Positions 11,757 through 57,163 of a stretch of 64,000 nt of DNA are shown here, piece after piece (within the stretch, counting starts at the first letter, position 1; each line of letters starts with the position of its first letter). The notes under the pieces are model-generated. The model ran no database searches. It was not told the DNA's origin and worked only from the letters and a program-made list of their open reading frames with translations. A program made the position numbers and the translations under genes. The stretch comes from an uncultured virus (IMG/VR IMGVR_UViG_3300037517_002797). Lineage: Duplodnaviria; Heunggongvirae; Uroviricota; Caudoviricetes. The DNA lies in the IMG/VR virus record IMGVR_UViG_3300037517_002797; one strand, given 5' to 3'.

Positions 11757-11834
11757 TTGGGGTCTTTTCTGTATCGTTGTGTGCTTATATAGACGCTATC
11801 AAAGCTTATGAGCCGTAATGGTTACTTACGGCAG

Positions 11835-12776: not shown

Positions 12777-12817
12777 ATGAGTACCGCTCTACGACTGCTA
12801 ATCAGCAACAAGTCAAG

Positions 12818-12979: not shown

Positions 12980-12981
12980 TG

Positions 12982-31719: not shown

Positions 31720-31851
31720 TGTCCCTCCTCCGGGATCAGTCACGATAGACCCACTTTAGGTCTATCTGGGGCTTCTGTCCATGGAGAGGGACTCTGACAC
31801 GATGTGCAGAGGCACTCACCTATGGAATACATTAACATGATTATAAATGTC

Positions 31852-37650: not shown

Positions 37651-37655
37651 AGTCC

Positions 37656-40600
37656 CTACGCTCGTTCCTGCGCCAGCTTCTTATCAGAAGGCCGTGGTGC
37701 TCTAATCATATACTGTGTTCCGTTACTTGAGAACTTCATCTCGTTTGTTTCTGGATCTACTACAAGTGAAGTACCTTTGTCGAGTAAGTACTGTCCAACT
37801 CCTTCTCGATCTGTTTCAACCATGACGTATGTCTGAACTACGTTCATATTCTCATCAACAGTTGGTTCAACACCGACATAGTAGACAGGACGAATGACGC
37901 CTTCAGTGTCTCCATCAATGGTCTCAATTACTGCCTTGCCCATGTCATCTAGGCTAATGTAGTTTTTGTAGACCATGAATTCATCGTAATCTACCTTGCT
38001 CAATTTTCGTGAATCCTTTCTCTTATTTCCAGCTGAAATTAGAGGTTTATCTGGACTAAGGGAGAGAATCTTATTCCTAATCATAAGTAGATTTTCTGAA
38101 ATTACACTGCGAAGTGACCGGCCGTTACTGTCAACAACGTCTCCGATGTCCGACATGAATAGGCTAAATAGCCTACTAAATTGGCCAGAATACATAGCAA
38201 CCTTTTCATCGTTATCTTTGCCTGCTCTTGTTGCTTTTAGAATAGATTCAATGTATTTAGTGTACGACTCAAATGTATTTTGCGACTTATTATTCACTGG
38301 AAGGCCAGCTTCTTTTTGGCCAGCAACAGTTATCGCCGTACCACTAAACGAAAGCCATTCTGGATCCATTTCTTCATATTCATTGTAGTCTTTGACTGAC
38401 ACTCTTCCACTGAAAGGAAGAATGGAGTGAACTTTGCTATCGTCTGTGATAACGCCAAGCACGTCGTTAGTCCAGTCAGAATCCATGAATGAGACAGTAG
38501 CGCCTCCGCTGCTCTGCGCAAGTATCTCTGGCTCAAGTGCGTACATCGCTCCGTTTGGATGTAACACGTAAAGACGAGGCAAAGTCAGGCCGTTGTTCAA
38601 CGCTACGTCAGATCGGTCAGACTTCTTCACTGTCCCAGCAGCGTCCCAGCCAGCCGCAATAACTTTTGAATCTTTTGGAAGGTAACCGTACGTGTGTGCC
38701 GCGCCTGACATCAGCAAGAGTGCTTGTACTTCGCCAAGAGTCAGCGCGTTGACATTGCCTCCTACAGACTCGACTGCAGAAGTAACTTCTGGTTCAACAC
38801 TTTTTGTATTCTTTGTCTGGCCTTTTTCCTTAAGTGCACCAGAGTTGACAATGACGTCTGCAATTGGAGTTCCATTTATTTCAGATATTCCCATGTCATC
38901 GAGCATTTCCATAACTCGACCATAAAACTGTGGTGGAAGTTCAACTATGTTTCCAGGAGCAATTACATCAATACCGTGCTTGAGCATTGTTTCGTATCCA
39001 CCAGGCGCTGAGTTGCTAATTGAGTTTGCTCCGATGATTCTCTGACCGTACTTATCGTTTCTATTGGCATAGAGGTCAGTTCTTGAATACACATTCTTAG
39101 GATCTATCCATATTTTTACATCGTTGTCGTACTTGATTAGAGAGTGGCCTTCGTTGAATTTATAACCGTGCGGGCTGAGATAGATGTAATCTGCTCCGCC
39201 TGTGGCCATGTCCTGATTTTCTGACATTCCAGAGTATGGCAGTCCTTCATTAAACCTATTTACAGTTGAAATAAGTCCTTTAGTAACTAGGTTAACAACT
39301 GTCTTAGCTACTTCATCAATTATTGGTTTTTCTGGGCCAGAGAAAGGATTACCAAAGTAGCTTCCAGCCGGCTTTACAAATCCTGAGCCTTCACTACCGT
39401 ACTTAGTATTTACTTTTTTAATGATGTGGTGAATTGACACCATGTGCATAAACACTTCTGTGCCTGTCTCGCTGGCAATTTGTTCTGCAACACCTTCTGG
39501 AAGTACGTAGTTGATACGTCCGTGTTTCCCAGGTACAAGATTGACATTATCTACTGTAACTCCGTAGTCTTCTTTGATTTTCTGGAGCATTGAAGCGCGT
39601 AACGCCTGCGAACTAACATTGTTAGCAGGATCGTTTTCGTTAGAAAATAGCGATAACAACTTGTTTTCAATGACAATGTCAATGTCATCTGACGAAGCGC
39701 TAGTGACGTCATTTACTCCTGCTGTCTTCATTGCTTCAGAAATGTCGTCTAATGTTGCATCAATTGGAAGATCTATCACGACTTGACCGTGGAATGCAGC
39801 AGGGGCGTCGTCGTACGTGCTGTTGGCTATTTGAGCGGTGCCTTTTATCTTTTGCGCAGAAGTTATTGTAATGCTTGCTTTTGCATTGTTGTCCTCCGCG
39901 TCATACACCCACTCTGTGCCTCGACCAAATCCTCGGCCTTCTTCGTCTACTACAATGTCTCCAGTGTCAGTGAGCTGCGTGCGCTTTAGCAATGGAGTTG
40001 CCTCTGACCATTTGCCGGCGTCACTAGTTTTGAGTGCCTTAGCATCTTGCAGTTTTGTTTCTTGTGCAAGCATTGCCCACGGCGTAAGCTTAAATCGTAG
40101 TCTAAGTTTTCTCTCGCCGTCTGGGGTAATGATTGTTGACGCGTGAACATCAAGATCTTCAATGTCAGTGCTGTCAACAAGCGCGGACTTTCCAAGAAGT
40201 CCGTCATCTTCTCTCTTTGCAACGGCGTACTCAACAATCTCTGAAAGAGACGGAACTCCATCAACGTAACTTCTAGTAAGCGGGAATTTTTCTGGCGATT
40301 TTTCAACTTTAGGACGGCCTGATGGGCTAATTCCAGATTTTTCAAGCCTTTCTTGTTTTCCTTTATTAAATCCATCAACAAATACATCTGCTGACCTTGA
40401 AGAATAAAATTGTATTGCATCAAACAGTTGTCTAGCTGTCTCGTCAATAAACTTTTTGTCACGTTCGGCCATGTCTGAACGCCAGTCTTCCGATGCGGAC
40501 CTCTGAAGAATTCCACGGTAGCTCGCTATTAGCTGCCTAACACGGTCAAATGCCGTGTAATCTAGGTCGTCAAACCGTCGCATATCGCCTTCAAAATCTC

Positions 40601-43600
40601 GAAGCATCTCGTATTCTTCTGATTCTTTTTTATTATTAAGTTCATAAAAGGCTAACGTGTTTGTAAGCGCGCTCTTTGCTGACTCAAACATAGCGCCTGC
40701 CTGACGTGTTTCGTCATCGTCTGGGCTTGAGTTGTCTTCAAGACTCTTTGCAAATAGATCAAACGCGGGATCAAAACCTCTAAGAGCTTCGTCCATGTTT
40801 GCGTACATGTCTTTAGCTTCTACCTCGACGCTGCTTTCAGTAATTGTTTTGATTTGCTTAACGACAGAATCAATGTTCTTTTGATGCTGCTCTTGTCCGC
40901 CGCCGTACCCTGTAACAGTTCCAGGCATGCTTTCGTTTACCTGCTCAAAAAGATACTCAAGATTGCCCTGACCTTCACTGTCAACTTCTACGAGATCTTT
41001 TCTCTTGAGAGCATCTGGGAATTGGCCATTTAACCATTCTGCGACTGCGCGTAGTTCTGGAGAATTATGATACTCGCTAATAGCTTGTTCAGTAAGTCCC
41101 TTGTTGAACCAGCCATTGACTGGCGATATTCCAAAAATTGGATACCACTTTCCTGCGTCAACATTCTTTTTTCCGCCGGCGCCTGTGCTCATGTAGAACG
41201 GAACTTTTACTCCGTTGATGCCTATCATGACGATTGGACGGCCGGCATACTTAAACATGTATGAAGACTGAACATTGCCTTTTTCATCAACTGGAACAAC
41301 TGTCTGTGCAGCAGTAACAACTATTCCTGGAATTACTCTTGGCAATTCTGAACTAATGTTAGTCAGTGTCCAAGTTTCATTTGATCCCTGCTCTTTATTT
41401 TCTGCAGGAACTACCTCTGGTTTAGATGTAATGTCTGGTTCTATATTTGGAATTCCAAGTTCTAACAGATTCATCGGCTTTGGATCTTGGCCTACGATTT
41501 CAACAAAAGTTACTGGAACATTTCCAAGATACTCATGTTTTTCGTTTCCTTTTCCGACAACACGGAATTTAGTTCCTCTTTGAAGAACAAACTCGAGCTC
41601 GTCTTTTTCGTCTTTAGCAGCGTCAATGTAAATGCCACGTGTGCCTGCTGGAGCAACCATCTTTAGCAAACCTTTATTTTCATCAGCAATATTTAGTATA
41701 AACATTGCCTTGTCTTTATCAAGACTTGTTGAAGAGAATCCTTCATTTACGAATTCATCACCTACATTAAGCTCGTTGATCGCTCTTCCAACTCCACCAT
41801 AGCCTTTTACGGCCCTGTATAGAAGCGTATCTTCGCTAAGAGGATCAACTTTGTTAATCGCATCTGTAATATCGGTGATAATTCCTACGTACTCTGCAAG
41901 TTGGAATTCATCTTCAAATCCGTCAGCGGCCCGCTCTTGATCCTTAGGGTCAGGTGACACCATCTGAGAAGCTGTGATGTTTACGCTTGCCGACTCGTCT
42001 TGGTACACATCAATGGCACCGAGGAATCCTTTTGCAGGTTCGCCTTGACTCTTATATTCTTCTACAAGACGTTTGTGCGTTGATAGCTTTTTCTGACTCT
42101 TTTCAGCGCTTCTTATTGCGGCTTCTTTTTTGGCGTCAGCTTCCTCATCGTCAGCGTTGTCATTTTGCTTTTCTTCTACTTCAGAAAAGATTACAGCGGC
42201 AGAGTCTTGAAACGCGCTATGAAGTTTTCCATCGCTGCCCATCTTCATAATTTCGTCAGCAGTAAACCAGCCAACTTCAGAGTTCTCTCCATCTTTAGGA
42301 GACAGGTCCCCAAGTTCTCCTGGCCCTACTTCAAACACAACTGTCTCGTACGACCAATCTGGCGATGGTTTACCACTATGAATAAAGACTGGGCTAAGTC
42401 CGCTAATGTCACCGCCGACTTCTTCCATAAATTCTTCTTTGGCAGTTGCAGTTGGAGTGTCTGCCATTTTCTTATTTGTATGCGCTCCGCCTGGGAACCC
42501 CCACTTGCCTCCGCCACTTGAAAGATTGCTCGAGCGCTTAGCGAGGAAGTACTCGTAGTTTCCATCTTTATTCTTGCGGCGGACAAGCGCGCCTTCTGCA
42601 CCAAACCTACCCCAGTACCGCTTTCCATCTGATGCAAAGTAGTAACCTTCACCAGTTTCTTGATCGTTTCCACCGCCAAGAGGCGCGAAGAATGGAAGGT
42701 TTGGAGGAGTTAAAGTCCCGTTGCGCAGAAGTTGAACGTCTGAGCTAGAGATGTTTTCTGCATAGTAGACGCCGTCATCTCCCTTACTAATGGTGTAATC
42801 ATTCCATTTGCTTGTTGGAGCTTCAGAAACTGGAGCCCCTGACGGGGCATCAGCTTTTGGGAGGTCGCCGCCAGACTGTTCGCCACCTTCAGGATAGATA
42901 GGAGTCCAAACTTCAAGTGTTGGAACATCAAATGTTGGGAATCCTTTTTGTTCACGAATTGCATTGATCTGGTTGATCAGTCGTGCATTGCGCTCTTTTG
43001 AAGCAAGAACAAGAGCTCGAAGTGGAGCTTCGTATTTTGTTCCCTTAAATGCTTCAGCAAGCCAGGTTGCATGACCAAATGCTATAGGCGTTGTTCCCTT
43101 GATGATGTCTGGAATTGTAATCCATCGCGCTCCAGTAGCATCATCTCCTGCTGCAAGAGGAGTGTCCCTTGGAACTTCGTAAGCAACTGCGCCGACGTAG
43201 GCTCCCTTGTACGCTCGTGGATCCCAGTCGTTTGCGTCAACCTCGCCGAGGAACGTGCGACTGGTGGCTTGGTCGGACGAGATCCCAACTTCTTCCATCA
43301 TCTCACGATCTGCTGCTGCTCCAAACGACTCACCTGCGTCTCTAAATCCACCAGGGAGCGCGTGCGCTCCCTTGAATGGACCGTGCAAGCGAGAGATCAT
43401 TAACACCATTGGAGTTCCGTTATCGTCGCTTGTGATGATCACCGCGTCAGAGGCAACGATCTTGCTTTCTTTTGACAGTGAGAACTCATTAGTTGCGTCA
43501 TCAATATCTTGATCGTCGTAGCTATCGTCAAAGTATGAGCTGATGTTTGCTTTTGTTTTCTTTGATTCACGTACGAGGTCAGCGCTAGGCTTCATCAATG

Positions 43601-46600
43601 CGAGGCCTGCTGGCATTGGAGGCACAGGTTCTCCGTTTAGCTCTGCCTGACGTGCTGCTGCTTCGTAGTCACGAGCTGCCTTGAGCTTTGCCCAGTCTTT
43701 CTTCTGCTTATCTACGATGTCCTGTGGAAGCTTCTTAGACGCTGGAGTTGTTGGAAGATCAATCCATGGATCTGTATCGTCTTCTGGATTAAGAACCGTA
43801 AGTGTGCTTGGGTTCATTGACTTACGTGCGACACCTGGGCCCCAGTTGCCTTTCTTAACACTGGCAGGGTCACGTGGGTCAATGTCGTAGCGAATATAAA
43901 CATTGATCCAATCTTTTTCGTTGTAGCCCTCAACGGTTCCAGAGTAGCCCCACTTATCGCGAACGCGCATTCCAGGAGTGATGAATGTCTTTCCATCACG
44001 TGAGTATCCAACAGGACGTCCACTTGGATCAACTGCATCGAGTGGTGGCAGGCTCTTTCCTGTTGGGCGCCAGTAGTACTGGCCAGTAAGAACTTCAACG
44101 ATACCCTCAAGCATGTCGCGGAAGAAGTTGTTGTCAATTGATGTTGCGCTGTCGGCAGGCTTGTGCGGGAACTTGTCAAGAATTGCATTGAGTTGGGCAA
44201 GTGCCTCTTGTTCTGACATTGTTCCTTCGCCAAGTGCTTTGCGAATTTCAGCAACCTGAGCTGCTGCTTCACGAACGCGCTTGCGGTCCGATGCCATCAG
44301 TGACGTGTCTTCACCTGTGACAAGTTCAACTGCTTCGTCAAACTCATCAAACTTCTGCTGCAGGTCAGCTGCCTTGTTGGCATCGCTTCTGAACGCTTTA
44401 TTCTTTTCCTCTGCCGACTGCTGTGCTGTCTTTGGAGCATCTGCATCTGGAAGAACATCGTCTGGAGCCTCTGCAACTCCAGTCGGCATTGCGCCTTGTG
44501 GAGCAGCGACGTCATCTGGACGCCACTCTGGATCAAGAGCTTTTGCTGGCGCGGCTTCTGGCGCAGTTGGTTCTGCAGCCTTAGGCGCTGTCTTGCTGAT
44601 GCGGATCGCATCGGCTGCATCAGCTGCCTGAAGCATAAGACTCTGTAGATCTCCTGCGCCTACTTCTGAATAAGGCTCGAGGAACTCTGCTGCCTCTCGG
44701 AACTTCTCCTCGGTGTCAACATACAGTTCACCGCTATAGGCGTACAGCGCGTCTTTAACTGCCTCGCGGAACTTCTTGATGTTCTTCTCATCCTTTGCGC
44801 TGCGATCAGCGTAGTCATCAAGAATGTCTTCAGCATCACTGACAGCCTGTTTTACAGACTTAATAATCTGCTCGTTGTTGTCGCCACCTTCTGCTGGTGT
44901 TGGTGTTGGTGCTGGTGGCTCTTCAACTCCACCGCCGCCTTCGCCTTCGGTAGTTGGCTCAGGTGTTGGCGCAGAAACTTCTTCTTCTTCTGCTGCTGGA
45001 ACTTCAGGCTTAACAAAACTGTCAATCCAGTTGAGTGGCCCAAGATCAACCATCTTCTTTGCACGTGTTACTGCAACATATGCGATCTTAAGTTCAGTTG
45101 GTTCAGGCATAATGACTTCGCCAGTTACTTTGTCAACTCGAGGGCCCCAGAAGTCGTTCCACATAGTGGCGTAATCCCATTCAAGGCCTTTAGCTTGGTG
45201 AACTGTCGTGATCATGACGTCAATAGCGCCGCTATCTACTTCAGTAGGTTCAGCTTTCTTAAGCCCAAGCGCCGTGCTGAGATCGTTAAGCAAATCAAAT
45301 GTGTCTGCCTCACTCGTAAACGGTGCGTCCCAAGTCTTAGTAACTCCGTTATACTTAAAGCGCTTTGTTTCTTTGATTGCATCTTTATTTCCGTACGTGT
45401 TTCCAGAGAGCGAGACATACGAACCTGAGACAGCGTACGTGATTCCTTTGCCAAGTTCACCAGTTGCACCAGGCGCTGTATCGCCAACATCTGCCTGCGT
45501 GTCGTCTTCTGACATATCGCGGATTTCGCCAGAGCCCTTGACAAGCTTTAGCTTGTCAATCATTTCACGAATTGCAGGAATTCCTTCAGCGTCAACCATG
45601 TCTGCAAAGATTTGAAGCTTTTTGCTGTCAATCAGTTCATCTGCAATTGCTTTTTGAACTTCAGACCATGACTTAAATGGAGCAAGATCCTCATGAAGTT
45701 GGCTTGGTTTATTTTGTCCAGTGATCAGATACTCTGCTGTATCTGTAAGACTTACGAGATCTCCTCTGTAATTCTTTGTCACACCAACTACTCGGCCTCG
45801 GCCAAGTTGATCGGCAATTGCTGCAAATCCTCCACCATTGGTACGGACGAGAATTGCATTTGTAGTGTCGAGCATCGAGCCAGTAGGCACAACCGTGCCT
45901 GGATCTGATCCAGCACCGATAACTCGAAGATCAGTGCCAAGGAGTTGCAGCCACTTGTTTGCTTCTTTTGCGATGTTCTCGCCGAAGCGGAACGACTTGG
46001 TCAAAGGCAAACGCTGTACTGCTCTGTCAACTTTTTCTAGTTGGTTTTCTCCACCGCGGAATGCGTAGATCGCTTGGTTGTTGTCTCCAACGTACACAAC
46101 CTGAAGTGGTTGCTCGCCGATGACTTTTCCAGATACTGGGTTGATGTCCTGAGCTTCGTCAAAGAATATGAAGTTGTTTGCGAACTTTGTTCCAGAGCCA
46201 ATCTTAGAAAGGTCTGGCTTTGAAAGTGCCCACATCTTTGTAACAACTGTGTTGTTGATCTTTGCATTGCCATTTGGATCTTGGTAGTCGCTCCAAATGT
46301 TATTGGCGGTGGCCATCATCCAATTTGGAACGTCACCACTCCATCCAGCTGCGATGAAGTGTTGCTCGCCAATCTCATCGTCGGCACTGATCATAAACTT
46401 GTTGACAACTTCTTTGAAGAACTTAGTTGCCTCAAAGAGCGAGACTGTCTCGTCGTTGTTGCCTTGGAACTCAGTGATGCCAAACGCCTCGGCAAATTTC
46501 TTGTAATACGCGAGTGGGTTTGACTTCTTCAGGCGCTGCATCTTTTTCTTGACTTCATCAGAAGCCCAGCGGTACGCAATTGCGTCGTTTGTGACGACTT

Positions 46601-49600: not shown

Positions 49601-52600
49601 CTGCATCGTTTCCGTCGGCGGCCATCTGGAGACCCCAGAATGCTCGGAACGCCTCTTGCTTTTCTGGATCATCGCTTAGGGCCCAGTCAATGTACTTAGC
49701 GATTAGCTTAGCGCCTTGCTCTGGACTTTCAGTCTCAATCGTGTCAACGTCTTCTGAGCTTTCAATTTCCCTAGCAAGTTTGATTATGAACGGATTTGTC
49801 TCGTTATGGTTTTTGACAAGTTTAACTGCGTTAGCTGTGTAGTCTGGCGCGCCAAGCATTCCATTTATCTTAGCGGCGTTTGATGAAGTAATCTTTCCAT
49901 ACGGAGTATCTTCAACAACTTTTTGGATATTTTTTGTGGCGTTGTTTGCAGCTGTTTTTTGTTCTGGAGTTTTCGCAAGTCGTGCATACGCTCCAGAAAG
50001 AAGAACGCCCTTGTCAAGTCCAGTAAGTTCAAGTGCTTCAAGAAGAGCCTCGACTGGAACGTCTTCCATTCCAGCATCAAACTTAAGACGCGCCATTCCA
50101 TTGCGCTCGTCGGCGTTCATAAGCCCCTGCGTCATTGACATCGCAAGTTGCGCTGTGTTGAACTTCCTACTCAATACTGCTGGATCGTCAGTGTAGTCAC
50201 TGCTTTCCTGAGTGGTTCGTCCCTTAGGACGATACACACCGAAGATGTTTGGCTTGTACGCACCGTCTGGAGCAGCAAACATTGAATCAAATGCCTCTTC
50301 ATCAAATGCTGTAGCTTCGCCCTCGTCAGTGTCACCTTCAAATGTGCCATCGTCTTCTGGCCCAGTAAGCTCACCTGAAACATTTTCAGATCCATCGGCA
50401 TCGCCGTTGTACCACTTAGCAAATTCTTCTTCGCTTCCTTCTGGAACTGAGAACTCAACTACTGGCCAGCCGCCTCCTTCGCCTTCTGGACTGACGATGT
50501 TTACGTCTCCGTCAGGGAATACTTCCTTAAAGCGACCAATGACCTCATCAAGAGTTTCATCTTCAGATGCGACATCAACTGTAAAGCTCGTACCTGCTTC
50601 TCCGTTTGGAAGCTCTGTGCTTTGTCCATCTGAAATGCCGTACTCATCTTCAAGTACTTGTGCTTGCTCTTGCTTTTGTGCACGAGACTCGTTGTAAGCC
50701 TTTCCAGCTTCATTCAAGCTGCCGTCTGCATCGTAGAACAAGTCAAGTTGACGCTCAAACGAAGGAGCTGTATCTGTAACTTCAGGACGTGCGTCTGGAA
50801 GAGGACGCATTGTGCGCGCTTCTTCACCAAGGTAGTCTTCAATTGGGTTGCCGTCAATTGTTGGCATAACTGGAGCAGCGATCTTGCTTGCGAGCCAGTC
50901 GGCTTCTTGCTTTCCATTGAGCTTTTCAAATGCGCGGCCCTTAACAAACTTGCCAACTGCGCTGCCGATTGATTCGGCCTTTCCAATTGCATCAACGTCA
51001 GCCGGGTTGACATTTGGATAGAGGTACGTTCCTCCACCCTTTCCATCGCGAGACTTAAACTTGATGAGCAATTCGCCAGTAGCTGGGTCAAACGACATCT
51101 CTTCAACTGATGAACTTGCTGATGTCTTGATCCTACGGAATGTTTGTTGACCTTCAGGTGCTGAAGGCTGCTGAGCTCCACCTGGCCATGCTGCATCAAC
51201 AAGACGGTCAAGTTCGTCCTGCGGCATATTGACGATGTCATCTACCTTGACATTTGTGTCAGGTGCAGGCTTATTTATCTTGTCAATGGTGAACGTGCGA
51301 TCTTCACCGTCGGTCTTGCTGAAACCTTTAAGTTGCTTTTTGCCAGCTTTGTTTTCAATGATTTGCTCTGGTGTAACTACGCGCAGTTTGTCATTGAAGT
51401 CAAAAGCGACGTCTTTCTTTTCTTCGATTGACTTCTCAATGATTGCTGGAAGATCTGCCGTAGGCGTGTTGCGCATGTCATTTGCTGCGTCAACAAGACG
51501 TTGGATCTCTGGTGAGATCTCTGGTGGTTCAGCAAACAGTGTTGGCTGACTCTCGTCTCGTAAAAGCTGGATCTTGGGTGGTTCCCCTGGAATCAGTCTC
51601 CCGTCAGGTCCAATCCTGAAATCCCCGTCGGGCAAATTCGTCCACTTGGGTGGTTCCCCTGGAATCAGTCTCCCGTCAGGTCCAATCCTGTACTCCTCGT
51701 CGGGCAAATTCGTCCAGGGCAAAGGCTCGCCAAGGCTCGGGTCAATAATCCGTTTTCCGTCAGGTCCAAGCTTGTAAATATCGTATGGCGGCTCGACCAG
51801 TTTCGGGTCAATAATCCGTTTTCCGTCAGGTCCAAGCTTGTAAATATCGTATGGCGGATCATAGATAGCTGATGTGTAGTCGGATCGCAGCTCTGGATAC
51901 TCGTCAAAGTCTGGCATTGGACCGCTGTATCGCCATTCACCGCCTACTGGTGGAATGCCAAATGGTACAAATGTCCAATTGTCAGGGTCATCGAGCTGTT
52001 CTCGGAATCTTTCTCGCTGCCTCTTTAGTTTCTCTTGACGCCTTGCTTCTCTTTCAACACTGCGCTCATCTTTACCAAAGCGTTCGTCTAAGAAATCTTT
52101 AAACTTCTCGTCTTCAAAAAATGTATCTTTAGGAGGCATTGACGTAATGCCTGGAGCTTCAGATGGCGCAACAATCTTGTCCCAAGCGAAGTTCTTGCTT
52201 GTTCCGTCAGAGTCTGTTGCCTTTAGGTTTGTACGACCTGTTTGACCATTTTGCCAAACACTTTTTGGAGTAACAACGCGATCTTTGCCGCTGTATGTGA
52301 AGCGAAGCTTTTGGTCGTTATCAATAGCGTCTTGAACAAACTTCTTGATGTCTGCAATCTTGTTGACTTCTTTTGGATTGAGATCAATTACGTCTCTTAT
52401 AGCAGCCGGTGCCTGGACTGGTGCAGGTGCTACATCTGAAGGCGTCATCTTATCTACAATGAACGTGCGATCTTCGCCGTCTGTTTGACTAAATCCAACT
52501 ACGTTTGTAGTTCCTGTCTTAGGATTTTTGTAGATGCGCTCTGGCGTAAATACACGGTTCTTTCCACTGTACTTAAAGCTGATTGGATACTGACCGTCAA

Positions 52601-55600
52601 TTGCCTTCTGCACATCGGCAACAACATCTTGTAGATTTGTTGACGTGATTGGTTGAGGTTCTTTACCTGAAACTGCTTCAACATTGCGTGGAGCTTCAGT
52701 GACCTTTGCCTTTTCAGGTATTGGCGCTTCCATCTTTGAAACGTTGTAAGTACGCTCTTCTCCAAGGGCGTGATCAAACGTCACGATGTTTGTTTCACCG
52801 TTCTTTTTGTTTACATATATGTTGCCTGGCTGAACCTGTCGGTTTTTGCCGTTGTAGCTAAAGTTGATGAGGTTTCCTTCTCCACGAGCTTTCTTGATGG
52901 AGTTTTTCTTTTCCTCTAACGTTGAACCTGCAAGATCGGACACACCGCCAGATGGATCTGCGTAGCGGCGGTACTTCTGCATTCTGTTGCCGCTTCGCAC
53001 AGCTCCAGTCTCGCGGAAACCGTCTTTTGTTGCGTCGTACACAGCGTCTTCGCTGAACCAGTACGTGCTGTCGCCGTCTGTCATCTCGTATTGTGTAGGA
53101 CCAGTTACGAGTTTTTCGTGTGTGATGCCTTCAACGGCCTTCTTCATTGCTTCTACGTCAAACGGAGCCCTTGCTCCAGTAGGCGCTTCAGGCTCTTCTG
53201 GCGTAACTTCTTCCTTAGGCATATTCTTTTCGCGAATTGCCTGTGCATTTGGCATGTCAGCTTTAACAGCCTCGGCTGCCTTGGCAAGTGTGTCAGTTGT
53301 TGCGACACGCTTGTTGTCACCTTCACCGATAAATATGCCTTTACGCCATACATCAAACTTGCTGTTTCCGTCGCTGTCAATGCTCTCAGTAATGCTGTGG
53401 TCTGAACCGTACTCGTCTGCTGGTGGAATGTGCGTCCACTCGTTTGGCTCTCCAAATTTTGTACCAGCGACTCGGGTTTCCCAGCCTTCAGGCGCAGTGC
53501 CTGGCTCTGTAGTCGCTGGCATAGGAGTGACTGGTCGCTCGAGTTCTTTTGTGGGTGCGCTGATTGCTTTCTTAGTTGCTGGTGTTTCAACTGTCACTGG
53601 CGCAGTTGGCTTGCCATCAGATTCCATCTTTGCAGAATCCATGATGTAGTCAGTGGCGTTGTAGTCGCCGTCGGTTGCTTTGTCAATTGCGTTACGGAGG
53701 TTGTCCTCTGTGCCCGACATCTTGACAGTGCCGTCGTCCATAAGCTTGGCTGTAACGCCTGGAGCAAACTCTTGTGTCCAAGCATCGAGGCCTTCTTGAT
53801 CTACTGGGCCGTCTTCTGTTTGCCAGTTGAGGCGAACAGATTGTGTTGGTGCGGCAACACCGCCTGGCTCACGGCGAGGTTCATCTGGAGATGCAGGTGC
53901 TAGTGCTTTTCCAGGTGGAGTTGTTGGCGGCTTTCCAGGTCCAGAAGCTGATGGAACAACTGCGGTTCCTCGCTTGTTTTTTGCAAAAGAAACGTCTGAT
54001 GTTTCTGATTTAACTACCTTTGCGTCTGTCCTAGGGTTGCCGTCAAGGTCGTCGTAAAACTCTGCAGTGCCGTCTTTTTTATAGATGTCTGAGACAGCGT
54101 CTCCACCATGAATTGCTGCAATCTTTCCATCTGACTCTTTTATCTCAAGAAGCTTCATTCCTGGCGTTGGATCAGCTTTATAGACGCCACTTTCAAGTTT
54201 GTCATCTACACTTGATGATTCATCGCCCATCTTTTCATGAGGACTTAGTCGTGGAATAAAGACACCGCGATCAAAGAACCATGGATCGTCTTTTGTTTTT
54301 ACACCGCTGACAGTTGATTCTCTGTCGCCAAGCCAACCGTCTCCACCACGGCCCCATCTCGCAATGCGACCGTCCTCGTGACGAAGGTACACTGAACCTG
54401 GATCTAATGCAGTTCCGCGAGCACCACTAGTTCCAGGCGTACGTGTTCTAAAGACAGTGTCAATCTTTCCAGACTCAAGCGCTTCGCGCACTGACTCTGG
54501 CATATCTTTTTCAATGTCTGGAGCGATTGCGCGTGCAACCTCAAACATGTCACGTGATTTTTCTGGGCTAAGCTTAAATGCAGATACAGTTGTAGCTTTT
54601 TCATCTGCTAAACGCTTGTTCTCTGCATCAACTAGTTTTTGAACAGAGTCAGGAACTACTGCAGGTGGGCGGTCGCCTGGAGCTTTCTTATCAAATGCTG
54701 ACTTAAACTTATCTTCACCGATGTCTTCTTGAACAACATCAACACCCCAGCCACCCTTGCTGAGTGCCTTCTGACCTTCAGGAGAATTTAAGTACGTTTG
54801 ATAGCTGTCCTGGTCCATAAGCGCCGCGCTCTCTGCACGGTCCCAGCCATCAATGTTATTGGCAATCATCTGGTTTCCAACTGCACGGCGCAGTGTTCCA
54901 CGATTTACACCAGAAAAATCTGCCTCGCCTTTATCATTTGCAGGGACATCAAGACGGTAGCCGTCAGCTGTTGTAAACGAAACCATCTTTGGATCGCTAC
55001 TTTGAACTTTCTTCCAAGCTGAAGGAGAGTCCATGCGCTTAAGCGCATTTGAGTCAATTGAATACTTTCGTTGCTCAGGATCAACTTCAACGTCGCGGTC
55101 GGGCAGACCTTTTAGCGCACTCTTTTTAAGAGTGGCTTTTGCTGCAATACCGCGGGAAGCAGGAACTGCGTACACTCCGTTTGGTACATATTTGTTGTCA
55201 CGAACTTCAACTTCAACGTCGTCAACACCTGACTGACCGACAACCTTTCCAGTTACTCCCCGATGTGAACCATCTGGAAAGCGAACACTGAAGTTCCAGC
55301 TTCCACCTTGAAATGCAAATCGTCCTTTACGGTCACGGCGCTGCAAACGTGCGCGAGCAGAACGCGCAGCACGTGAGTTGCCGCCAAGGCCAAGGCCGAG
55401 TACAGCGATGATTGGTTCAAGATCAACAGCAGCTGTGATTGGAACAAGACCTGGTCCCATAGCAGCAAGACGTGCAAATGCATGCCTGCGTTCAATCGAG
55501 CCTGGTTCAAGTGAGTGTGCTGAAGCTACAAGAGCACGAGCAGCTTCGCTGTTAATGTGCGTGTCTGCAGCAATCCATTGTGCACGAGCGTGGCGAAGTG

Positions 55601-55931
55601 CGGCCTCGTCCATCTTGTGAAACTTTGTTGAAAGCGGGTGACCGATAGAAAGAAGATCAGAGTTTTGCAGTGATGCGGTCGTAATTTTGTTTCTTGAGGC
55701 AAGTGAAACGAACGCAGAGACTGCACGCAGTGCTCCATAGATACGAGCGTCTGCAGATCCAGTCGTGTTCTTACGAATTTCGCGCTCTGCTACTGTAAGT
55801 GCAGCACCGAACGAAACTTGTCGCTCTGGAAGAATGTTCTCGTTGGATTTTTCAACGAGACTCTGTACCTTATAGTAAAGACTGAGTTGCTGGATCTTAC
55901 TAAGTTCTCTGCGCTTTTTTTCGTTTGACAT
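37656..55931 (-). CDS. Giant polyvalent protein (6091 aa): 4 WYL-like, KTSC, ART, PI3/4-kinase/HipA-like kinase, DEDDh exonuclease, UvrD helicase, 2 Nudix, VIP2-like ART, further domains
   Basis: Single uninterrupted ORF; motifs FDYESTG/HRADAD, ALAGTGKT/DEAQD/YVAVTRA, LPGG..E......RE..EE.G, YR...FSSTS...ELE. Confidence 0.85.
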   Translation of the reverse strand: MSNEKKRRELSKIQQLSLYYKVQSLVEKSNENILPERQVSFGAALTVAEREIRKNTTGSADARIYGALRAVSAFVSLASRNKITTASLQNSDLLSIGHPLSTKFHKMDEAALRHARAQWIAADTHINSEAARALVASAHSLEPGSIERRHAFARLAAMGPGLVPITAAVDLEPIIAVLGLGLGGNSRAARSARARLQRRDRKGRFAFQGGSWNFSVRFPDGSHRGVTGKVVGQSGVDDVEVEVRDNKYVPNGVYAVPASRGIAAKATLKKSALKGLPDRDVEVDPEQRKYSIDSNALKRMDSPSAWKKVQSSDPKMVSFTTADGYRLDVPANDKGEADFSGVNRGTLRRAVGNQMIANNIDGWDRAESAALMDQDSYQTYLNSPEGQKALSKGGWGVDVVQEDIGEDKFKSAFDKKAPGDRPPAVVPDSVQKLVDAENKRLADEKATTVSAFKLSPEKSRDMFEVARAIAPDIEKDMPESVREALESGKIDTVFRTRTPGTSGARGTALDPGSVYLRHEDGRIARWGRGGDGWLGDRESTVSGVKTKDDPWFFDRGVFIPRLSPHEKMGDESSSVDDKLESGVYKADPTPGMKLLEIKESDGKIAAIHGGDAVSDIYKKDGTAEFYDDLDGNPRTDAKVVKSETSDVSFAKNKRGTAVVPSASGPGKPPTTPPGKALAPASPDEPRREPGGVAAPTQSVRLNWQTEDGPVDQEGLDAWTQEFAPGVTAKLMDDGTVKMSGTEDNLRNAIDKATDGDYNATDYIMDSAKMESDGKPTAPVTVETPATKKAISAPTKELERPVTPMPATTEPGTAPEGWETRVAGTKFGEPNEWTHIPPADEYGSDHSITESIDSDGNSKFDVWRKGIFIGEGDNKRVATTDTLAKAAEAVKADMPNAQAIREKNMPKEEVTPEEPEAPTGARAPFDVEAMKKAVEGITHEKLVTGPTQYEMTDGDSTYWFSEDAVYDATKDGFRETGAVRSGNRMQKYRRYADPSGGVSDLAGSTLEEKKNSIKKARGEGNLINFSYNGKNRQVQPGNIYVNKKNGETNIVTFDHALGEERTYNVSKMEAPIPEKAKVTEAPRNVEAVSGKEPQPITSTNLQDVVADVQKAIDGQYPISFKYSGKNRVFTPERIYKNPKTGTTNVVGFSQTDGEDRTFIVDKMTPSDVAPAPVQAPAAIRDVIDLNPKEVNKIADIKKFVQDAIDNDQKLRFTYSGKDRVVTPKSVWQNGQTGRTNLKATDSDGTSKNFAWDKIVAPSEAPGITSMPPKDTFFEDEKFKDFLDERFGKDERSVEREARRQEKLKRQRERFREQLDDPDNWTFVPFGIPPVGGEWRYSGPMPDFDEYPELRSDYTSAIYDPPYDIYKLGPDGKRIIDPKLVEPPYDIYKLGPDGKRIIDPSLGEPLPWTNLPDEEYRIGPDGRLIPGEPPKWTNLPDGDFRIGPDGRLIPGEPPKIQLLRDESQPTLFAEPPEISPEIQRLVDAANDMRNTPTADLPAIIEKSIEEKKDVAFDFNDKLRVVTPEQIIENKAGKKQLKGFSKTDGEDRTFTIDKINKPAPDTNVKVDDIVNMPQDELDRLVDAAWPGGAQQPSAPEGQQTFRRIKTSASSSVEEMSFDPATGELLIKFKSRDGKGGGTYLYPNVNPADVDAIGKAESIGSAVGKFVKGRAFEKLNGKQEADWLASKIAAPVMPTIDGNPIEDYLGEEARTMRPLPDARPEVTDTAPSFERQLDLFYDADGSLNEAGKAYNESRAQKQEQAQVLEDEYGISDGQSTELPNGEAGTSFTVDVASEDETLDEVIGRFKEVFPDGDVNIVSPEGEGGGWPVVEFSVPEGSEEEFAKWYNGDADGSENVSGELTGPEDDGTFEGDTDEGEATAFDEEAFDSMFAAPDGAYKPNIFGVYRPKGRTTQESSDYTDDPAVLSRKFNTAQLAMSMTQGLMNADERNGMARLKFDAGMEDVPVEALLEALELTGLDKGVLLSGAYARLAKTPEQKTAANNATKNIQKVVEDTPYGKITSSNAAKINGMLGAPDYTANAVKLVKNHNETNPFIIKLAREIESSEDVDTIETESPEQGAKLIAKYIDWALSDDPEKQEAFRAFWGLQMAADGNDAGGINWDITDFYRGMVEEIARRTGDTFEDAGREVFVKEIVKKYGDYKDFAEGRQRISKGVDDLTADTSTAAMYRLVAESAIPNDVELQRRIYVQTDSKDFTDQTTVGNTIDIDPRSMSSIDQVADETDYGSTPSKEGQAKIIFSFAPGEIDAVRTRNYSWLPGEEEYFGYGTFTIERVEPIRERVYEVVLRRATPAEQAQPAEQVAPEQVAPAPAQASPTVPYYGDISGWKQVGGQSGSNEGGVYEDENGRQFYVKRAKSQSHAENEALASAFYRHFEIPSSEVGLATRDDQKDSEPGTYNPAAGSFGSDRIVTPMIPGTETLQSSRSDEAITSQLHDGFAIDAWLSNYDVIGLVYDNIVVDEQGNTYRIDPGGALKWRAQGKPKDWFGPEVGELDSMRDRDINQSAGSVFGKMTPEQIVESGRKLLNITPSQIDDIVDSVISDPTDREMLKDVLKRRRSNILDQLGIKDTTVDPFAERIPLTDSIGYEAQDLQPGDVIGDDSFVIERIFRDGDTPKNKVSVQGYFPGHESQRKEWNETTIIPAARGGTIPPKGDKPALHRPKAPRKPSPGAFNGKMAELLKDAKTWEEAAAIIRKTPIVFFDYESTGLPGPEKGGKNNPVQIGAIVALDGKVNARFSSYMNPEHELSDWSAKNLKQMDGSPVTEEWLATQPSMKEAHEQFLAFVNENVGGDVILGGQYTPFDLEILNRVLSENGLSLNIVGTIDSKDLAQGTLPKWNSKTKFGASQVSEKDGKRRASNSLGPIADFLQVQLPDWHRADADAEASWEITDAMLDRAIENPDTTPTTLLNVDGAFEAKQKELADYENEYAKYEADLAEYVAAKAIAAAWNCGGSGLTAAVGPANGPCSVPDVEKMVREATPLPIGEIDPEGVEGGSTSKPTSMADTQEIDNPKYDGVDTNDPYKDEPFMPTEEQRAILDAILSGNDVVVEALAGTGKTSTLLIAGKRKKKERPTERGVYIAFNKSAQLEAERKFAEAGLTNIEVVTNDAIAYRWASDEVKKKMQRLKKSNPLAYYKKFAEAFGITEFQGNNDETVSLFEATKFFKEVVNKFMISADDEIGEQHFIAAGWSGDVPNWMMATANNIWSDYQDPNGNAKINNTVVTKMWALSKPDLSKIGSGTKFANNFIFFDEAQDINPVSGKVIGEQPLQVVYVGDNNQAIYAFRGGENQLEKVDRAVQRLPLTKSFRFGENIAKEANKWLQLLGTDLRVIGAGSDPGTVVPTGSMLDTTNAILVRTNGGGFAAIADQLGRGRVVGVTKNYRGDLVSLTDTAEYLITGQNKPSQLHEDLAPFKSWSEVQKAIADELIDSKKLQIFADMVDAEGIPAIREMIDKLKLVKGSGEIRDMSEDDTQADVGDTAPGATGELGKGITYAVSGSYVSLSGNTYGNKDAIKETKRFKYNGVTKTWDAPFTSEADTFDLLNDLSTALGLKKAEPTEVDSGAIDVMITTVHQAKGLEWDYATMWNDFWGPRVDKVTGEVIMPEPTELKIAYVAVTRAKKMVDLGPLNWIDSFVKPEVPAAEEEEVSAPTPEPTTEGEGGGGVEEPPAPTPTPAEGGDNNEQIIKSVKQAVSDAEDILDDYADRSAKDEKNIKKFREAVKDALYAYSGELYVDTEEKFREAAEFLEPYSEVGAGDLQSLMLQAADAADAIRISKTAPKAAEPTAPEAAPAKALDPEWRPDDVAAPQGAMPTGVAEAPDDVLPDADAPKTAQQSAEEKNKAFRSDANKAADLQQKFDEFDEAVELVTGEDTSLMASDRKRVREAAAQVAEIRKALGEGTMSEQEALAQLNAILDKFPHKPADSATSIDNNFFRDMLEGIVEVLTGQYYWRPTGKSLPPLDAVDPSGRPVGYSRDGKTFITPGMRVRDKWGYSGTVEGYNEKDWINVYIRYDIDPRDPASVKKGNWGPGVARKSMNPSTLTVLNPEDDTDPWIDLPTTPASKKLPQDIVDKQKKDWAKLKAARDYEAAARQAELNGEPVPPMPAGLALMKPSADLVRESKKTKANISSYFDDSYDDQDIDDATNEFSLSKESKIVASDAVIITSDDNGTPMVLMISRLHGPFKGAHALPGGFRDAGESFGAAADREMMEEVGISSDQATSRTFLGEVDANDWDPRAYKGAYVGAVAYEVPRDTPLAAGDDATGARWITIPDIIKGTTPIAFGHATWLAEAFKGTKYEAPLRALVLASKERNARLINQINAIREQKGFPTFDVPTLEVWTPIYPEGGEQSGGDLPKADAPSGAPVSEAPTSKWNDYTISKGDDGVYYAENISSSDVQLLRNGTLTPPNLPFFAPLGGGNDQETGEGYYFASDGKRYWGRFGAEGALVRRKNKDGNYEYFLAKRSSNLSSGGGKWGFPGGAHTNKKMADTPTATAKEEFMEEVGGDISGLSPVFIHSGKPSPDWSYETVVFEVGPGELGDLSPKDGENSEVGWFTADEIMKMGSDGKLHSAFQDSAAVIFSEVEEKQNDNADDEEADAKKEAAIRSAEKSQKKLSTHKRLVEEYKSQGEPAKGFLGAIDVYQDESASVNITASQMVSPDPKDQERAADGFEDEFQLAEYVGIITDITDAINKVDPLSEDTLLYRAVKGYGGVGRAINELNVGDEFVNEGFSSTSLDKDKAMFILNIADENKGLLKMVAPAGTRGIYIDAAKDEKDELEFVLQRGTKFRVVGKGNEKHEYLGNVPVTFVEIVGQDPKPMNLLELGIPNIEPDITSKPEVVPAENKEQGSNETWTLTNISSELPRVIPGIVVTAAQTVVPVDEKGNVQSSYMFKYAGRPIVMIGINGVKVPFYMSTGAGGKKNVDAGKWYPIFGISPVNGWFNKGLTEQAISEYHNSPELRAVAEWLNGQFPDALKRKDLVEVDSEGQGNLEYLFEQVNESMPGTVTGYGGGQEQHQKNIDSVVKQIKTITESSVEVEAKDMYANMDEALRGFDPAFDLFAKSLEDNSSPDDDETRQAGAMFESAKSALTNTLAFYELNNKKESEEYEMLRDFEGDMRRFDDLDYTAFDRVRQLIASYRGILQRSASEDWRSDMAERDKKFIDETARQLFDAIQFYSSRSADVFVDGFNKGKQERLEKSGISPSGRPKVEKSPEKFPLTRSYVDGVPSLSEIVEYAVAKREDDGLLGKSALVDSTDIEDLDVHASTIITPDGERKLRLRFKLTPWAMLAQETKLQDAKALKTSDAGKWSEATPLLKRTQLTDTGDIVVDEEGRGFGRGTEWVYDAEDNNAKASITITSAQKIKGTAQIANSTYDDAPAAFHGQVVIDLPIDATLDDISEAMKTAGVNDVTSASSDDIDIVIENKLLSLFSNENDPANNVSSQALRASMLQKIKEDYGVTVDNVNLVPGKHGRINYVLPEGVAEQIASETGTEVFMHMVSIHHIIKKVNTKYGSEGSGFVKPAGSYFGNPFSGPEKPIIDEVAKTVVNLVTKGLISTVNRFNEGLPYSGMSENQDMATGGADYIYLSPHGYKFNEGHSLIKYDNDVKIWIDPKNVYSRTDLYANRNDKYGQRIIGANSISNSAPGGYETMLKHGIDVIAPGNIVELPPQFYGRVMEMLDDMGISEINGTPIADVIVNSGALKEKGQTKNTKSVEPEVTSAVESVGGNVNALTLGEVQALLLMSGAAHTYGYLPKDSKVIAAGWDAAGTVKKSDRSDVALNNGLTLPRLYVLHPNGAMYALEPEILAQSSGGATVSFMDSDWTNDVLGVITDDSKVHSILPFSGRVSVKDYNEYEEMDPEWLSFSGTAITVAGQKEAGLPVNNKSQNTFESYTKYIESILKATRAGKDNDEKVAMYSGQFSRLFSLFMSDIGDVVDSNGRSLRSVISENLLMIRNKILSLSPDKPLISAGNKRKDSRKLSKVDYDEFMVYKNYISLDDMGKAVIETIDGDTEGVIRPVYYVGVEPTVDENMNVVQTYVMVETDREGVGQYLLDKGTSLVVDPETNEMKFSSNGTQYMIRAPRPSDKKLAQERA
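51573..51860 (-). repeat. Intragenic tandem duplications (2x72 bp and 2x66 bp) encoding GPDG(K/R) repeats
   Basis: CTTGGGTGGTTCCCCTGGAATCAGTCTCCCGTCAGGTCCAATCCTG at 51573 and 51645; CGGGTCAATAATCCGTTTTCCGTCAGG... at 51738 and 51804. Confidence 0.9.
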
Positions 55932-55933
55932 AT

Positions 55934-57163
55934 TTAGCTTTCAACTTGTGGTAGCAGGTCGGCATCTTCACTGTCGTATGTCATTACTGCGAGTTCACGA
56001 GCGCGGTCAAATCCGCTCTCGTTGTTGTCAACTCCACGCTTCCACGCTGCGCGCAGAGCAGGAATTACTTCATAACCAAGACCACTGTATTCTGCAAATT
56101 CTGTAATTGCATGTTCAGTTGTCTCGTATTCGTTCTGTGGGCGAAGCTCGATGTACAGCTCGTCTGCTGCCAGTGCACTGGCAACAATAGATGCCGTGGA
56201 CTTTGGATGTGCTTGTGGAAGCAAGTCATTGTCTTGCTTGTAATTTGGATTTGATGGACGACCTGCGCTAAGCAAATGCAAATACGCATTTACGCGTGCC
56301 ATCGCCCACTGATCACGAGTCTTGCCTGGTCGGTGCGAGCTTGAAAACGCGCCTGCGCCTCGGCGGTACACTGCCTTTAGTTGAGCAAGTGTTGCCTTAC
56401 GACCAGCCTTAGCATCTTTGTTGTGCTCTTTAACTTTGTTCATCAACGCTGTTTCTGTTTTAGCTGAAAACTTAATGCTTCGTCCGCCTGCTGCAGATCC
56501 TTTTGGATTCTTTTTTGATCCTTTGATTCTGTCTTTTTTAGGTGCAGGCTTTGACGCTGCTGCTAAGAATCCAAAATCATCGTAGGCTTCTTCATCGTCT
56601 CCAAAGCTGTCGTCCATGCCATCTTCATAGACATATACTTCAACTTGTTCTTGCTCTGGCATTGCGACTAGCTTTCCACCAGTCTGCATTCCAGTGATTG
56701 CGCGCAACTGCCATGCCCACTTCTTATGCATGTCATCACGTGTTGCTAAGAGATCGCAGATGCCCTGCTGGTTTGCTTCAGACGCGAGTCTAAATGACTC
56801 AAGAATACATTCATTGAGAATGTTGTTTGCCTCAAGAAGGTTAGCGCTCATTAGCACTGGATCATCAACCATGTCGTTGTCGGTGTTTTGAATCTTTGAA
56901 AACGAAGACATTGATGACAACGTTGCTGGCGAGTCGTAGCCAAGCTTAAGAATGCTTTCAGCAATTGGATCAACTGCGCCTTGTGCATCTGCGTAGATTT
57001 CACCAAACAACTCGTGAAACTCAGAAAAGTCCGGCCCTTTAACATTCCAATGAAATCCGATTGCCTTTGTGTAAAAAGCAAATGTCGTACCGAGGCAATG
57101 ACCGAGGCTCATTGCGAGCTTGGCATTGGCTTCTTGCGACTGGTTTGGGTTGTTCATAATCAT
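55934..57163 (-). CDS. dps: Dps/ferritin-like domain fused to a basic helical head-protein domain
   Basis: FHWNVKGPDF..FHELF.E.Y......D.IAE, H.KWAWQL; C-terminal VYRRG.GA...HRPG...QWAMARVN. Confidence 0.8.
   Translation of the reverse strand: MIMNNPNQSQEANAKLAMSLGHCLGTTFAFYTKAIGFHWNVKGPDFSEFHELFGEIYADAQGAVDPIAESILKLGYDSPATLSSMSSFSKIQNTDNDMVDDPVLMSANLLEANNILNECILESFRLASEANQQGICDLLATRDDMHKKWAWQLRAITGMQTGGKLVAMPEQEQVEVYVYEDGMDDSFGDDEEAYDDFGFLAAASKPAPKKDRIKGSKKNPKGSAAGGRSIKFSAKTETALMNKVKEHNKDAKAGRKATLAQLKAVYRRGAGAFSSSHRPGKTRDQWAMARVNAYLHLLSAGRPSNPNYKQDNDLLPQAHPKSTASIVASALAADELYIELRPQNEYETTEHAITEFAEYSGLGYEVIPALRAAWKRGVDNNESGFDRARELAVMTYDSEDADLLPQVES

Follow-up and report, generated by a model that had tools for sequence, protein, structure and literature searches.

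What is an 18-kb gene doing among the head genes of a tailed phage? The question is raised by a 64,000-nucleotide stretch of DNA from an uncultured virus (IMG/VR record IMGVR_UViG_3300037517_002797; the whole stretch is called the window here), which comes from a lake-water phage of actinobacteria. On the minus strand, at positions 37656..55931, lies an open reading frame (ORF) that starts with ATG and is translated without an internal stop into 6,091 amino acids (aa), a protein of 666 kDa with a pI of 4.8. At 18,276 of the 64,000 bases (28.6%), the gene does occupy more than a quarter of the window, as an initial annotation had stated when it described a multi-enzyme effector encoded between portal and protease. 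We conclude that this giant protein is probably a polyvalent effector that is packed in the phage head and delivered into the host, and that its anchor in the head would be new and distinct from the MuF domain.

The protein belongs to a family that is defined by its N-terminus. When proteins of 3,350-10,660 aa were searched with aa 1-400, 58 giants were returned, among them a 6,091-aa representative one residue off the window's protein; the other 57 were used to ask how widely each segment is covered by relatives. From the N-terminus to the C-terminus, the protein is arranged as follows.

54747..55931, minus strand: N-terminal, family-defining module (N-module), aa 1-395, covered by 51-55 of the 57 giant relatives.
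52932..54746, minus strand: poorly conserved region, aa ~396-1000, covered by 0-17 of 57 relatives, with no family match.
52170..52900, minus strand: three WYL-like domains, with motif cores at 52818-52862, 52533-52577 and 52257-52301.
51573..51860, minus strand: in-frame tandem repeat of four 22-24-aa units with (I/L)GPDG(R/K), at aa 1366, 1388, 1416 and 1440.
51270..51445, minus strand: fourth WYL-like domain, motif at aa 1510-1524, matching the WYL region of Actinomycetia phage DSL-LC01.
50934..51116, minus strand: KTSC domain, aa 1606-1666 (Pfam PF13619, E 5.8e-6, 26.4 bits against a cut-off of 25).
49632..50306, minus strand: conserved module with no assigned function, aa 1876-2100, in about 22-41 of 57 relatives and at 30 loci by tblastn; no family match in Pfam or NCBIfam.
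49032..49403, minus strand: candidate ADP-ribosyltransferase (ART) 1, aa 2177-2300, with R2198, R2224-S2225 and E2273-x-E2275.
48198..48938, minus strand: predicted atypical protein kinase, CtkA/CotH/HipA-like, aa 2332-2578, with K2365, E2376, D2452, N2457, D2459 and D2480.
47241..47807, minus strand: DEDDh 3'-5' exonuclease, aa 2709-2897 (Pfam RNase_T, E 6e-10).
45048..46814, minus strand: UvrD-type superfamily 1 helicase, aa 3040-3628 (Pfam UvrD-helicase, E 5e-13; UvrD_C, E 4e-11).
43692..44534, minus strand: conserved module with no assigned function, aa 3800-4080, in about 26-34 of 57 relatives and also in DSL-LC01.
43062..43445, minus strand: Nudix hydrolase 1, aa 4163-4290 (Pfam NUDIX, E 1.9e-13), with an exact Nudix box at aa 4195-4216.
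42249..42566, minus strand: Nudix hydrolase 2, aa 4456-4561 (Pfam NUDIX, E 1.3e-7; RenU, PDB 6uuf, E 1.6e-7).
41556..41882, minus strand: ART 2, aa 4684-4792 (Pfam ADPrib_exo_Tox, E 2e-10, 40.8 bits against a cut-off of 23.4; phrog_3895).
38832..40385, minus strand: conserved C-terminal module, aa 5183-5700, in about 34-38 of 57 relatives.
37659..38831, minus strand: C-terminal tail, aa 5701-6091, in about 8-14 of 57 relatives, with no family match.

Most of the enzymes are recognizable without difficulty. Family models match at the positions that the initial annotation had given for four WYL domains, the KTSC domain, the DEDDh exonuclease, the UvrD helicase and both Nudix hydrolases. The WYL family is matched by Pfam with E 4e-8, best over aa 1103-1163, and four copies of its motif occur at aa 1024, 1119, 1211 and 1510. 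The exonuclease also matches NCBIfam models of the DnaQ/PolC-exo type and phrog_192, and its DEDDh motifs (DxE, D and H-x4-D) are intact at aa 2710-2717, 2810-2816 and 2884-2892. Likewise, the helicase matches phrog_1967 (E 2.5e-75), its nearest solved chain in the Protein Data Bank (PDB) is the F-box DNA helicase FBH1 (E 2e-16), and its Walker A, DEAQD (II), GDxxQxIYxFRG (III) and VI motifs are intact at aa 3061, 3257, 3282 and 3576. Judged against the Nudix box G-x5-E-x7-R-E-U-x-E-E-x-G-U, the second Nudix domain is divergent, with EE kept and R replaced, and it passes the Pfam cut-off; the nearest NCBIfam models for the first are the NadM-type Nudix and the ADP-ribose-responsive NtrR. For the module at aa 3800-4080, the window's own slice has no Pfam family at E<=1, and slices from four relatives give DUF4947 as their best match (E 1.5e-4), below the cut-off. 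Linkers rich in P, A, E, T and S lie at aa 660-690, 777-827, 895-911, 2307-2323, 3642-3677 and 3772-3811.

The kinase has no Pfam support, its nearest family being HipA_2 at E 0.27. A full-library HMMER query with aa 1876-2700 matched 4,294 proteins at E<=0.001, and the widespread part of this segment is aa ~2305-2585. In an alignment of 20 of these sequences, the Gly-rich loop, the Lys, the Glu and D-x4-N-x-D are all invariant, as is an Asp further along, and the AlphaFold model has a pLDDT of 87 and a pTM of 0.82. Because the motifs are invariant and the fold model is confident, we assign aa 2332-2578 to the atypical protein kinases of the CtkA/CotH/HipA/actin-fragmin kinase group, an assignment that the predicted fold confirms and that upholds the kinase originally proposed despite the Pfam result.

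The initial annotation had also listed three ARTs, the third with some reserve, and these fared differently. ART 2 is well founded, in that it matches the Pfam family and has an intact triad (R4706, S4733-T-S, E4778-x-E4780). ART 1 is a plausible but unproven candidate. Its R, R, E-x-E pattern is invariant across nine sequences and it aligns in register with ART profiles; an hhalign comparison with the family's own ART 2 is weak (E 0.44), and one with a wider profile of known ARTs gives P 0.007 over 117 columns at a probability of 5.5%, compared with P 0.042-0.31 for five controls. Pfam matches none of its nine slices, a PDB profile search returned no ART-related match among three rows at E<=10, and the look-alikes found with a protein language model (Atlas) are a lead only.

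The proposed third ART (aa 5477-5694) did not hold up. Five slices gave no ART-type Pfam match, the window's own slice yielding only SecA_PP_bind at E 0.027, and a PDB profile search returned only a ribosomal-protein row at E 0.82. Against the ART profile, hhalign gave P 0.4 over 17 columns, and the R and S that alignment A5 shows as conserved lie just 11 residues apart. An OspC-family cluster appeared at rank 30 of the Atlas search (score 0.87), where recognition falls below the guide value and offers no firm lead. As an ART this region is unsupported, and it lies within the conserved C-terminal module at aa 5183-5700, which has no recognizable fold and for which a search for homologues of near its full length found three fragments only.

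A comparison of the 58 giants reveals a fixed frame with variable content. The domain counts come from precomputed Pfam lists, which are incomplete (KTSC and WYL are missing for the window's own cluster). By these lists, RNase_T is present in 49 of the 58 giants and UvrD in 48, followed by ADPrib_exo_Tox in 24, NUDIX in 22, KTSC in 16, and ArdC-N together with MPTase-PolyVal in 14. The initial annotation had called the domain combination unfamiliar; we found no published description of it, but it is not unique, as RNase_T, UvrD, ART and NUDIX occur together in 15 of the 58 giants. Coverage by the other 57 proteins follows the same pattern, with aa 1-350 covered by 51-55, aa 1900-2600 by about 40, aa 2600-3600 by 42-51 and aa 5200-5700 by 34-38, and the Nudix/ART stretch by only 13-23. 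Close relatives retain 79-82% identity over aa 1844-4385, then have different sequence, and are about 40% identical in the last 900 residues. The G+C content is 0.43 at window positions 38000-42000, within the 3' third of the gene, versus 0.47-0.50 in the rest of the gene; this segment coincides with the part that is most divergent among close relatives, which suggests that it was exchanged recently. Eight of the 58 giants are longer than 6,091 aa, the longest having 7,986 aa, which rules out the window's protein as the largest phage protein. A further 42 shorter proteins, mostly of 1,900-3,200 aa, share the N-terminus, and the N-module family comprises at least 100 protein clusters.

We turn to the location of the gene. 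The window represents a tailed phage whose long ORFs all lie on the same strand, with genes in the order TerL (61812-63245), portal, a 409-aa gene, the giant gene, a 244-aa gene, a protease fusion and the capsid protein; tail and DNA-metabolism genes come after the capsid gene. The genes that flank the giant gene are these.

57178..58959, minus strand: portal gene (phrog_776, E 3.5e-103).
55934..57163, minus strand: 409-aa gene for a ferritin/Dps-like and DUF5824-like protein (Pfam Ferritin, E 2.6e-13; DUF5824, E 5e-8).
36916..37650, minus strand: 244-aa gene with a Cys-rich C-terminal half, without a Pfam or PHROG match and with 46% identity to DSL-LC01 WJZ48512.
31852..36912, minus strand: head maturation protease fusion of 1,686 aa (phrog_18402, E 2.9e-58; phrog_859, E 8.8e-99).
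29845..31743, minus strand: major capsid protein (phrog_777, E 2.6e-83), with 80% identity to that of DSL-LC01 and about 50-55% to those of ~190-kb Microbacterium and Arthrobacter phages.

Thus, the giant gene lies between portal and protease as first described, but adjoins neither, with the 409-aa and 244-aa genes intervening. MuF-like minor capsid genes canonically lie between the portal and capsid protease genes. The giant gene indeed occupies the slot where MuF-type polyvalent proteins sit, but Pfam finds no MuF domain in the protein. In a survey of 65 IMG/VR loci obtained through the N-module, a portal homologue and a homologue of the 409-aa gene are each upstream of the giant homologue at 64 of the 65, the latter directly adjoining it, and homologues of the 244-aa and protease genes are downstream wherever the locus extends that far. 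The slot holds a large gene in sequenced phages as well, coding for 3,289 aa in DSL-LC01, 1,654 aa in Microbacterium phage Cece and 2,709 aa ('DNA helicase') in Arthrobacter phage Mimi.

Several details of these neighbours may be recorded here. In some relatives, the homologue of the 244-aa gene is located between the portal and ferritin-like genes instead, and the DSL-LC01 homologue of this protein is annotated 'high potential iron-sulfur protein'. The N-terminal extension of the protease fusion spans about 950 aa, and the same region is represented by three genes in DSL-LC01. Finding a ferritin-like protein encoded among head genes calls encapsulin cargo to mind.

What might hold such a protein in the head? 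The initial annotation had named a 'head-type module' at the N-terminus. A conserved module is certainly present, but it matches no known head-protein family. Nothing from Pfam, PHROGs or NCBIfam matches aa 1-1000, no solved chain in the PDB matches the N-module by sequence, and fold searches (including PDB and BFVD) gave no significant match, a result compatible with a very remote likeness to MuF. An AlphaFold2 model (pLDDT 81, pTM 0.48) is helical at aa 1-170, disordered and basic at aa ~172-206, and beta-rich at aa ~207-360, and the sequence RLQRRDRKGRF is near-invariant in the basic stretch (alignment A3, 36 sequences). More speculatively, the first ~120 helical residues may be sigma-factor-like; in the relative at locus L051, sigma-70 region 4 follows directly after the N-module.

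A profile hidden Markov model of the N-module recovers the proteins in the same slot of sequenced phages, namely DSL-LC01 WJZ48510 (E 6.5e-112), Cece gp68 (E 7.7e-37) and Mimi gp77 (E 7.7e-15). Profile positions ~157-317 form the extreme N-terminus of Cece gp68 and Mimi gp77, and are found again in Mimi gp79, in DSL-LC01 WJZ48507 and in the N-terminal extensions of the Cece and DSL-LC01 proteases. More generally, Mimi gp79, Cece gp70, and DSL-LC01 WJZ48507 and WJZ48513 each contain portions of the N-module. In the window itself, the C-terminal half of the 409-aa ferritin-like protein matches profile positions 10-100 (E 1.9e-8), with the motif DLLPxxHPxST in both, and its DUF5824-like part resembles the first ~100 residues of the giant protein. 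Because parts of the module recur in neighbouring head genes, and because of the gene position, we infer that the N-module is a head-incorporation device.

These characteristics can be set against what is known of polyvalent proteins, which are predicted to be packaged and injected, with T4 Alt and the N4 virion RNA polymerase given as examples (PMC5512222; Iyer, Burroughs, Anand, de Souza, Aravind 2017). Three features were compared. First, several unrelated catalytic and binding domains are joined in one chain. Second, the protein is encoded among virion genes, flanked by TerL, portal, protease and capsid genes, as are the polyvalent proteins of portal-terminase phages. Third, it carries a hallmark domain, ART, which is frequent in polyvalent proteins, and 14 of the 58 relatives add ArdC-N and the polyvalent-protein metallopeptidase. 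By these three features the giant protein qualifies as a phage polyvalent protein; its presence in the virion, a fourth feature, is predicted. It is not a fusion to MuF (PF04233).

The differences are equally informative. The giant protein is without a MuF, portal or peptidase domain, its anchor being the unannotated N-module, and its conserved core is the DEDDh exonuclease together with UvrD. Within the part of PMC5512222 covered, UvrD is named for one protein only, which has 12,242 aa and belongs to a Streptomyces plasmid, and the kinases described belong to a different, C-terminally truncated clade from phages of the Verrucomicrobia-Chlamydia group and of Bacteroidetes. Effectors fused to MuF are known as MuF polymorphic toxins (PMC5576092) and as the MuF-VIP2 fusions of Microbacterium phages Percival, Goodman and Johann (PMC7302621). 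The giant protein resembles them in its place in the head-gene block and its ART payload, and its kinase-like module is also present in a protein (P0094) that carries Phage_Mu_F and ART; among 20 short relatives that we scanned, ten match an ART-type family. In contrast to MuF fusions, it is ~5-10 times longer, has many payload domains rather than one C-terminal toxin, and lacks MuF. Nudix 2 and ART 2 are also matched by the C-terminal extensions of PHROG families that bear the names portal protein and head maturation protease, which indicates that other phages fuse the same payloads directly to head proteins.

Mimi gp77, Cece gp68 and DSL-LC01 WJZ48510 are genuine homologues of the giant protein whose genes occupy the corresponding slot behind the portal gene; all are shorter, and they are annotated as helicase or hypothetical protein. 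WJZ48510 has counterparts of the WYL repeats, of aa 1875-2577 (38% identity), of aa 3851-4067 and of the C-terminal module, but is without the exonuclease, UvrD, the Nudix domains and ART 2; its 3,289-aa gene is not mentioned in the part of the DSL-LC01 paper that was covered. In Mimi gp77 only UvrD is recognizable, and in Cece gp68 nothing is. Thirteen slot proteins in all were scanned, yielding UvrD in Mimi, several GNATs at locus L039, Nudix at L041 and sigma-70 region 4 at L051, with no Pfam match in the remaining nine.

On the reading that we prefer, the giant protein would be made late, together with the head proteins, and the N-module (aa 1-395) would take it into the assembling capsid beside the portal. 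The prohead protease may cut at the linkers rich in P, A, E, T and S. The rest of the chain would be a swappable payload that enters the host along with the DNA. Its core, kept in most relatives, would be the DEDDh exonuclease and UvrD-type helicase with the CtkA-like kinase before them. To this core the window's phage adds binding modules (four WYL-like, one KTSC), a pair of Nudix hydrolases of the ADP-ribose/NAD type and one or two ARTs. The kinase and ART would modify host proteins, the Nudix hydrolases would remove molecules derived from NAD or ADP-ribose, and the exonuclease-helicase would act on DNA ends, all before any phage gene is expressed. A role of this kind has a precedent: ART and Nudix domains packaged in phage heads are described as countering immunity based on NAD and ADP-ribose (PMC9503650).

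Several observations weigh against this proposal. Uptake into the capsid, any cut made by the prohead protease, ejection, anti-defence activity and every target are inferences, for the giant protein and its homologues alike. To pass through the tail, a chain of 666 kDa would need to unfold or to be cut beforehand, and our scans gave no peptidase domain in the protein. With Pfam, Phage_Mu_F (PF04233) is not detected in 36 N-modules at E<=0.1 or in 40 windows of the giant protein at E<=1, nor does Pfam find MPTase or ArdC-N in it. The match to the basic motif of the N-module in the N-terminal extension of the window's protease fusion is weak (profile positions 164-200, aa 348-384, E 3e-4). Moreover, an exonuclease-helicase core could equally serve replication, repair or packaging in a cell that is already infected.

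This last point leads to the strongest competing explanation, in which the protein is never injected. It would be a late protein that works in the producing cell or stays in the capsid, either as a portal-associated DNA-handling machine for packaging, end processing or ejection, or as an internal core or scaffold whose enzymes act on the phage's own DNA and nucleotides. Such a function would suit a family whose most conserved payload is RNase_T and UvrD (49 and 48 of 58 giants), whose cultured member in Mimi keeps the helicase as its sole recognizable domain, and whose gene is near the portal gene; that the C-terminal module ends the shorter relatives suggests a structural role for both ends. 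We nevertheless consider this explanation unlikely, since ART, kinase, ArdC and GNAT domains are typical of host-directed effectors and not of packaging factors. The turnover of payload among close relatives fits conflict genes better than it fits a core assembly machine, and at the same loci the portal is far more conserved (68-93% identity to the window) than is the N-module (31-86%).

It is highly improbable that the protein is a 'Trojan horse' ART toxin that harms eukaryotic grazers when they feed on infected cells, an idea put forward for the VIP2-like ARTs that freshwater phages carry (PMC6802176): all 24 sequencing runs listed for the window are from lake water and ART 2 matches the ADPrib_exo_Tox/VIP2-type family, but the ART makes up little of the 666-kDa chain, in which nucleic-acid enzymes form the dominant core, ADPrib_exo_Tox is present in only 24 of the 58 giants, and no translocation or receptor-binding component was found in any general family scan.

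Finally, the ORF might be an artefact, either a chimeric assembly or several genes joined by sequencing error, and this possibility carries almost no weight. Window positions 30981-64000 are reproduced by three IMG/VR contigs from three datasets (L003, L004 and L006, 19,269 nucleotides with a 100% match; L069, 20,040 nucleotides with one mismatch; L070, 13,522 nucleotides, and L071, 20,040 nucleotides, both with a 100% match). Together with the ORF listing and the translation, these separately assembled contigs, identical but for at most one mismatch, bear out the 18-kb gene and its 6,091-aa product. In four of four runs, Logan contigs tile positions 37000-56500 with no indel and no joint, so the chimera that the initial annotation had asked to be checked is not borne out. 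The only break point common to the contigs of all four runs is the tandem repeat at 51589-51857, on either side of which single contigs span 37000-51602 (in two of the four runs) and 51828-56500 without indels. This repeat has a period of 72 nucleotides (95% matches by TRF), a multiple of three, and therefore an error in copy number would keep the frame. Sampled words of the window occur at a share of 1.00 in all 24 of the lake-water metagenomes, but all 24 runs are flagged as possible sources of the window and are thus not independent support on their own. None of the 24 runs listed is an RNA dataset, which carries no information on expression. The module order is also common to the 57 other giants (3,353-7,986 aa) from many assemblies. 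We conclude that the giant ORF is real and not an assembly chimera.

The effector that we propose, packed in the head and delivered, has other counterparts among large or enzymatic phage proteins. The N4 virion RNA polymerase, T4 Alt and P1 DdrB are likewise very large or enzymatic proteins that are carried in the head and active at the start of infection (PMC5512222). They are not homologues of the N-module, have one or two activities versus about ten, and are proven to be packaged, which for the giant protein is a prediction. In Microbacterium cluster EK phages and phage Burro, 13-kb genes code for proteins of >4,400 aa with few informative domains, which the authors suggest are processed and virion-associated, and the cluster EK proteins were called the largest of any actinobacteriophage in 2020 (PMC7302621). 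The giant gene similarly claims a large share of an actinobacteriophage genome. A tblastn search with the three thirds of the giant protein gave no cluster EK phage or Burro among the matches listed. The giant family exceeds the EK proteins in size, but only in metagenome assemblies. The helicase-methylase DarB of phage P1 is another large protein that is packaged in the virion.

A more ambitious extension of our proposal is possible, though on the whole doubtful. The N-module might be a formerly unrecognized, MuF-independent cargo loader of actinobacterial siphoviruses, and the sub-parts common to the giant protein, the ferritin/Dps-like protein and the protease fusion may be capsid-targeting signals, comparable to the cargo peptides by which ferritin-like proteins are loaded into the HK97-fold shells of encapsulins. 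The capsid would then deliver up to ~0.9 MDa of exchangeable enzymes per chain, with a constant payload of injected kinase and exonuclease-helicase whose targets, reached ahead of phage transcription, would be DNA ends or defence complexes.

Two other regions of the window contain genes of possible interest. At 8742-14352 on the minus strand are genes for a dCMP deaminase, a thymidylate synthase homologue, a 341-aa protein with a weak thymidylate-kinase match, a GlcNAc-type glycosyltransferase and a protein with a 2OG-Fe(II) oxygenase domain, a cluster that could be a pathway for DNA base hypermodification. At 114-875 on the minus strand, at the end where the replication genes lie, a 253-aa protein gives a weak match to APH phosphotransferase (E 2.4e-5, 24.6 bits against a cut-off of 23.2).

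The concept of a polyvalent effector encoded in the head slot is already known. As far as our literature search reaches, the new elements are the non-MuF anchor, the conserved core of kinase and exonuclease-helicase, and a family of such size and breadth; we found no description of the giant family, the FTP supplement of PMC5512222, which possibly holds related architectures, being outside the search. The homologues in the cultured SEA-PHAGES isolates Mimi and Cece make the packaging claim testable by ordinary virion proteomics. The family is abundant in lakes, with the window's stretch present in all 24 lake-water runs listed and the N-module in at least 100 protein clusters. Packaging of the giant proteins would mean that heads of phages outside the MuF world are loaded with very large enzyme cargoes of modular build by means of a new anchor, and that the conserved exonuclease-helicase-kinase core has a role at the start of infection. 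The change of payload among close relatives would provide a natural catalogue of candidate enzymes for host takeover and counter-defence in freshwater actinobacteria that are hard to culture.

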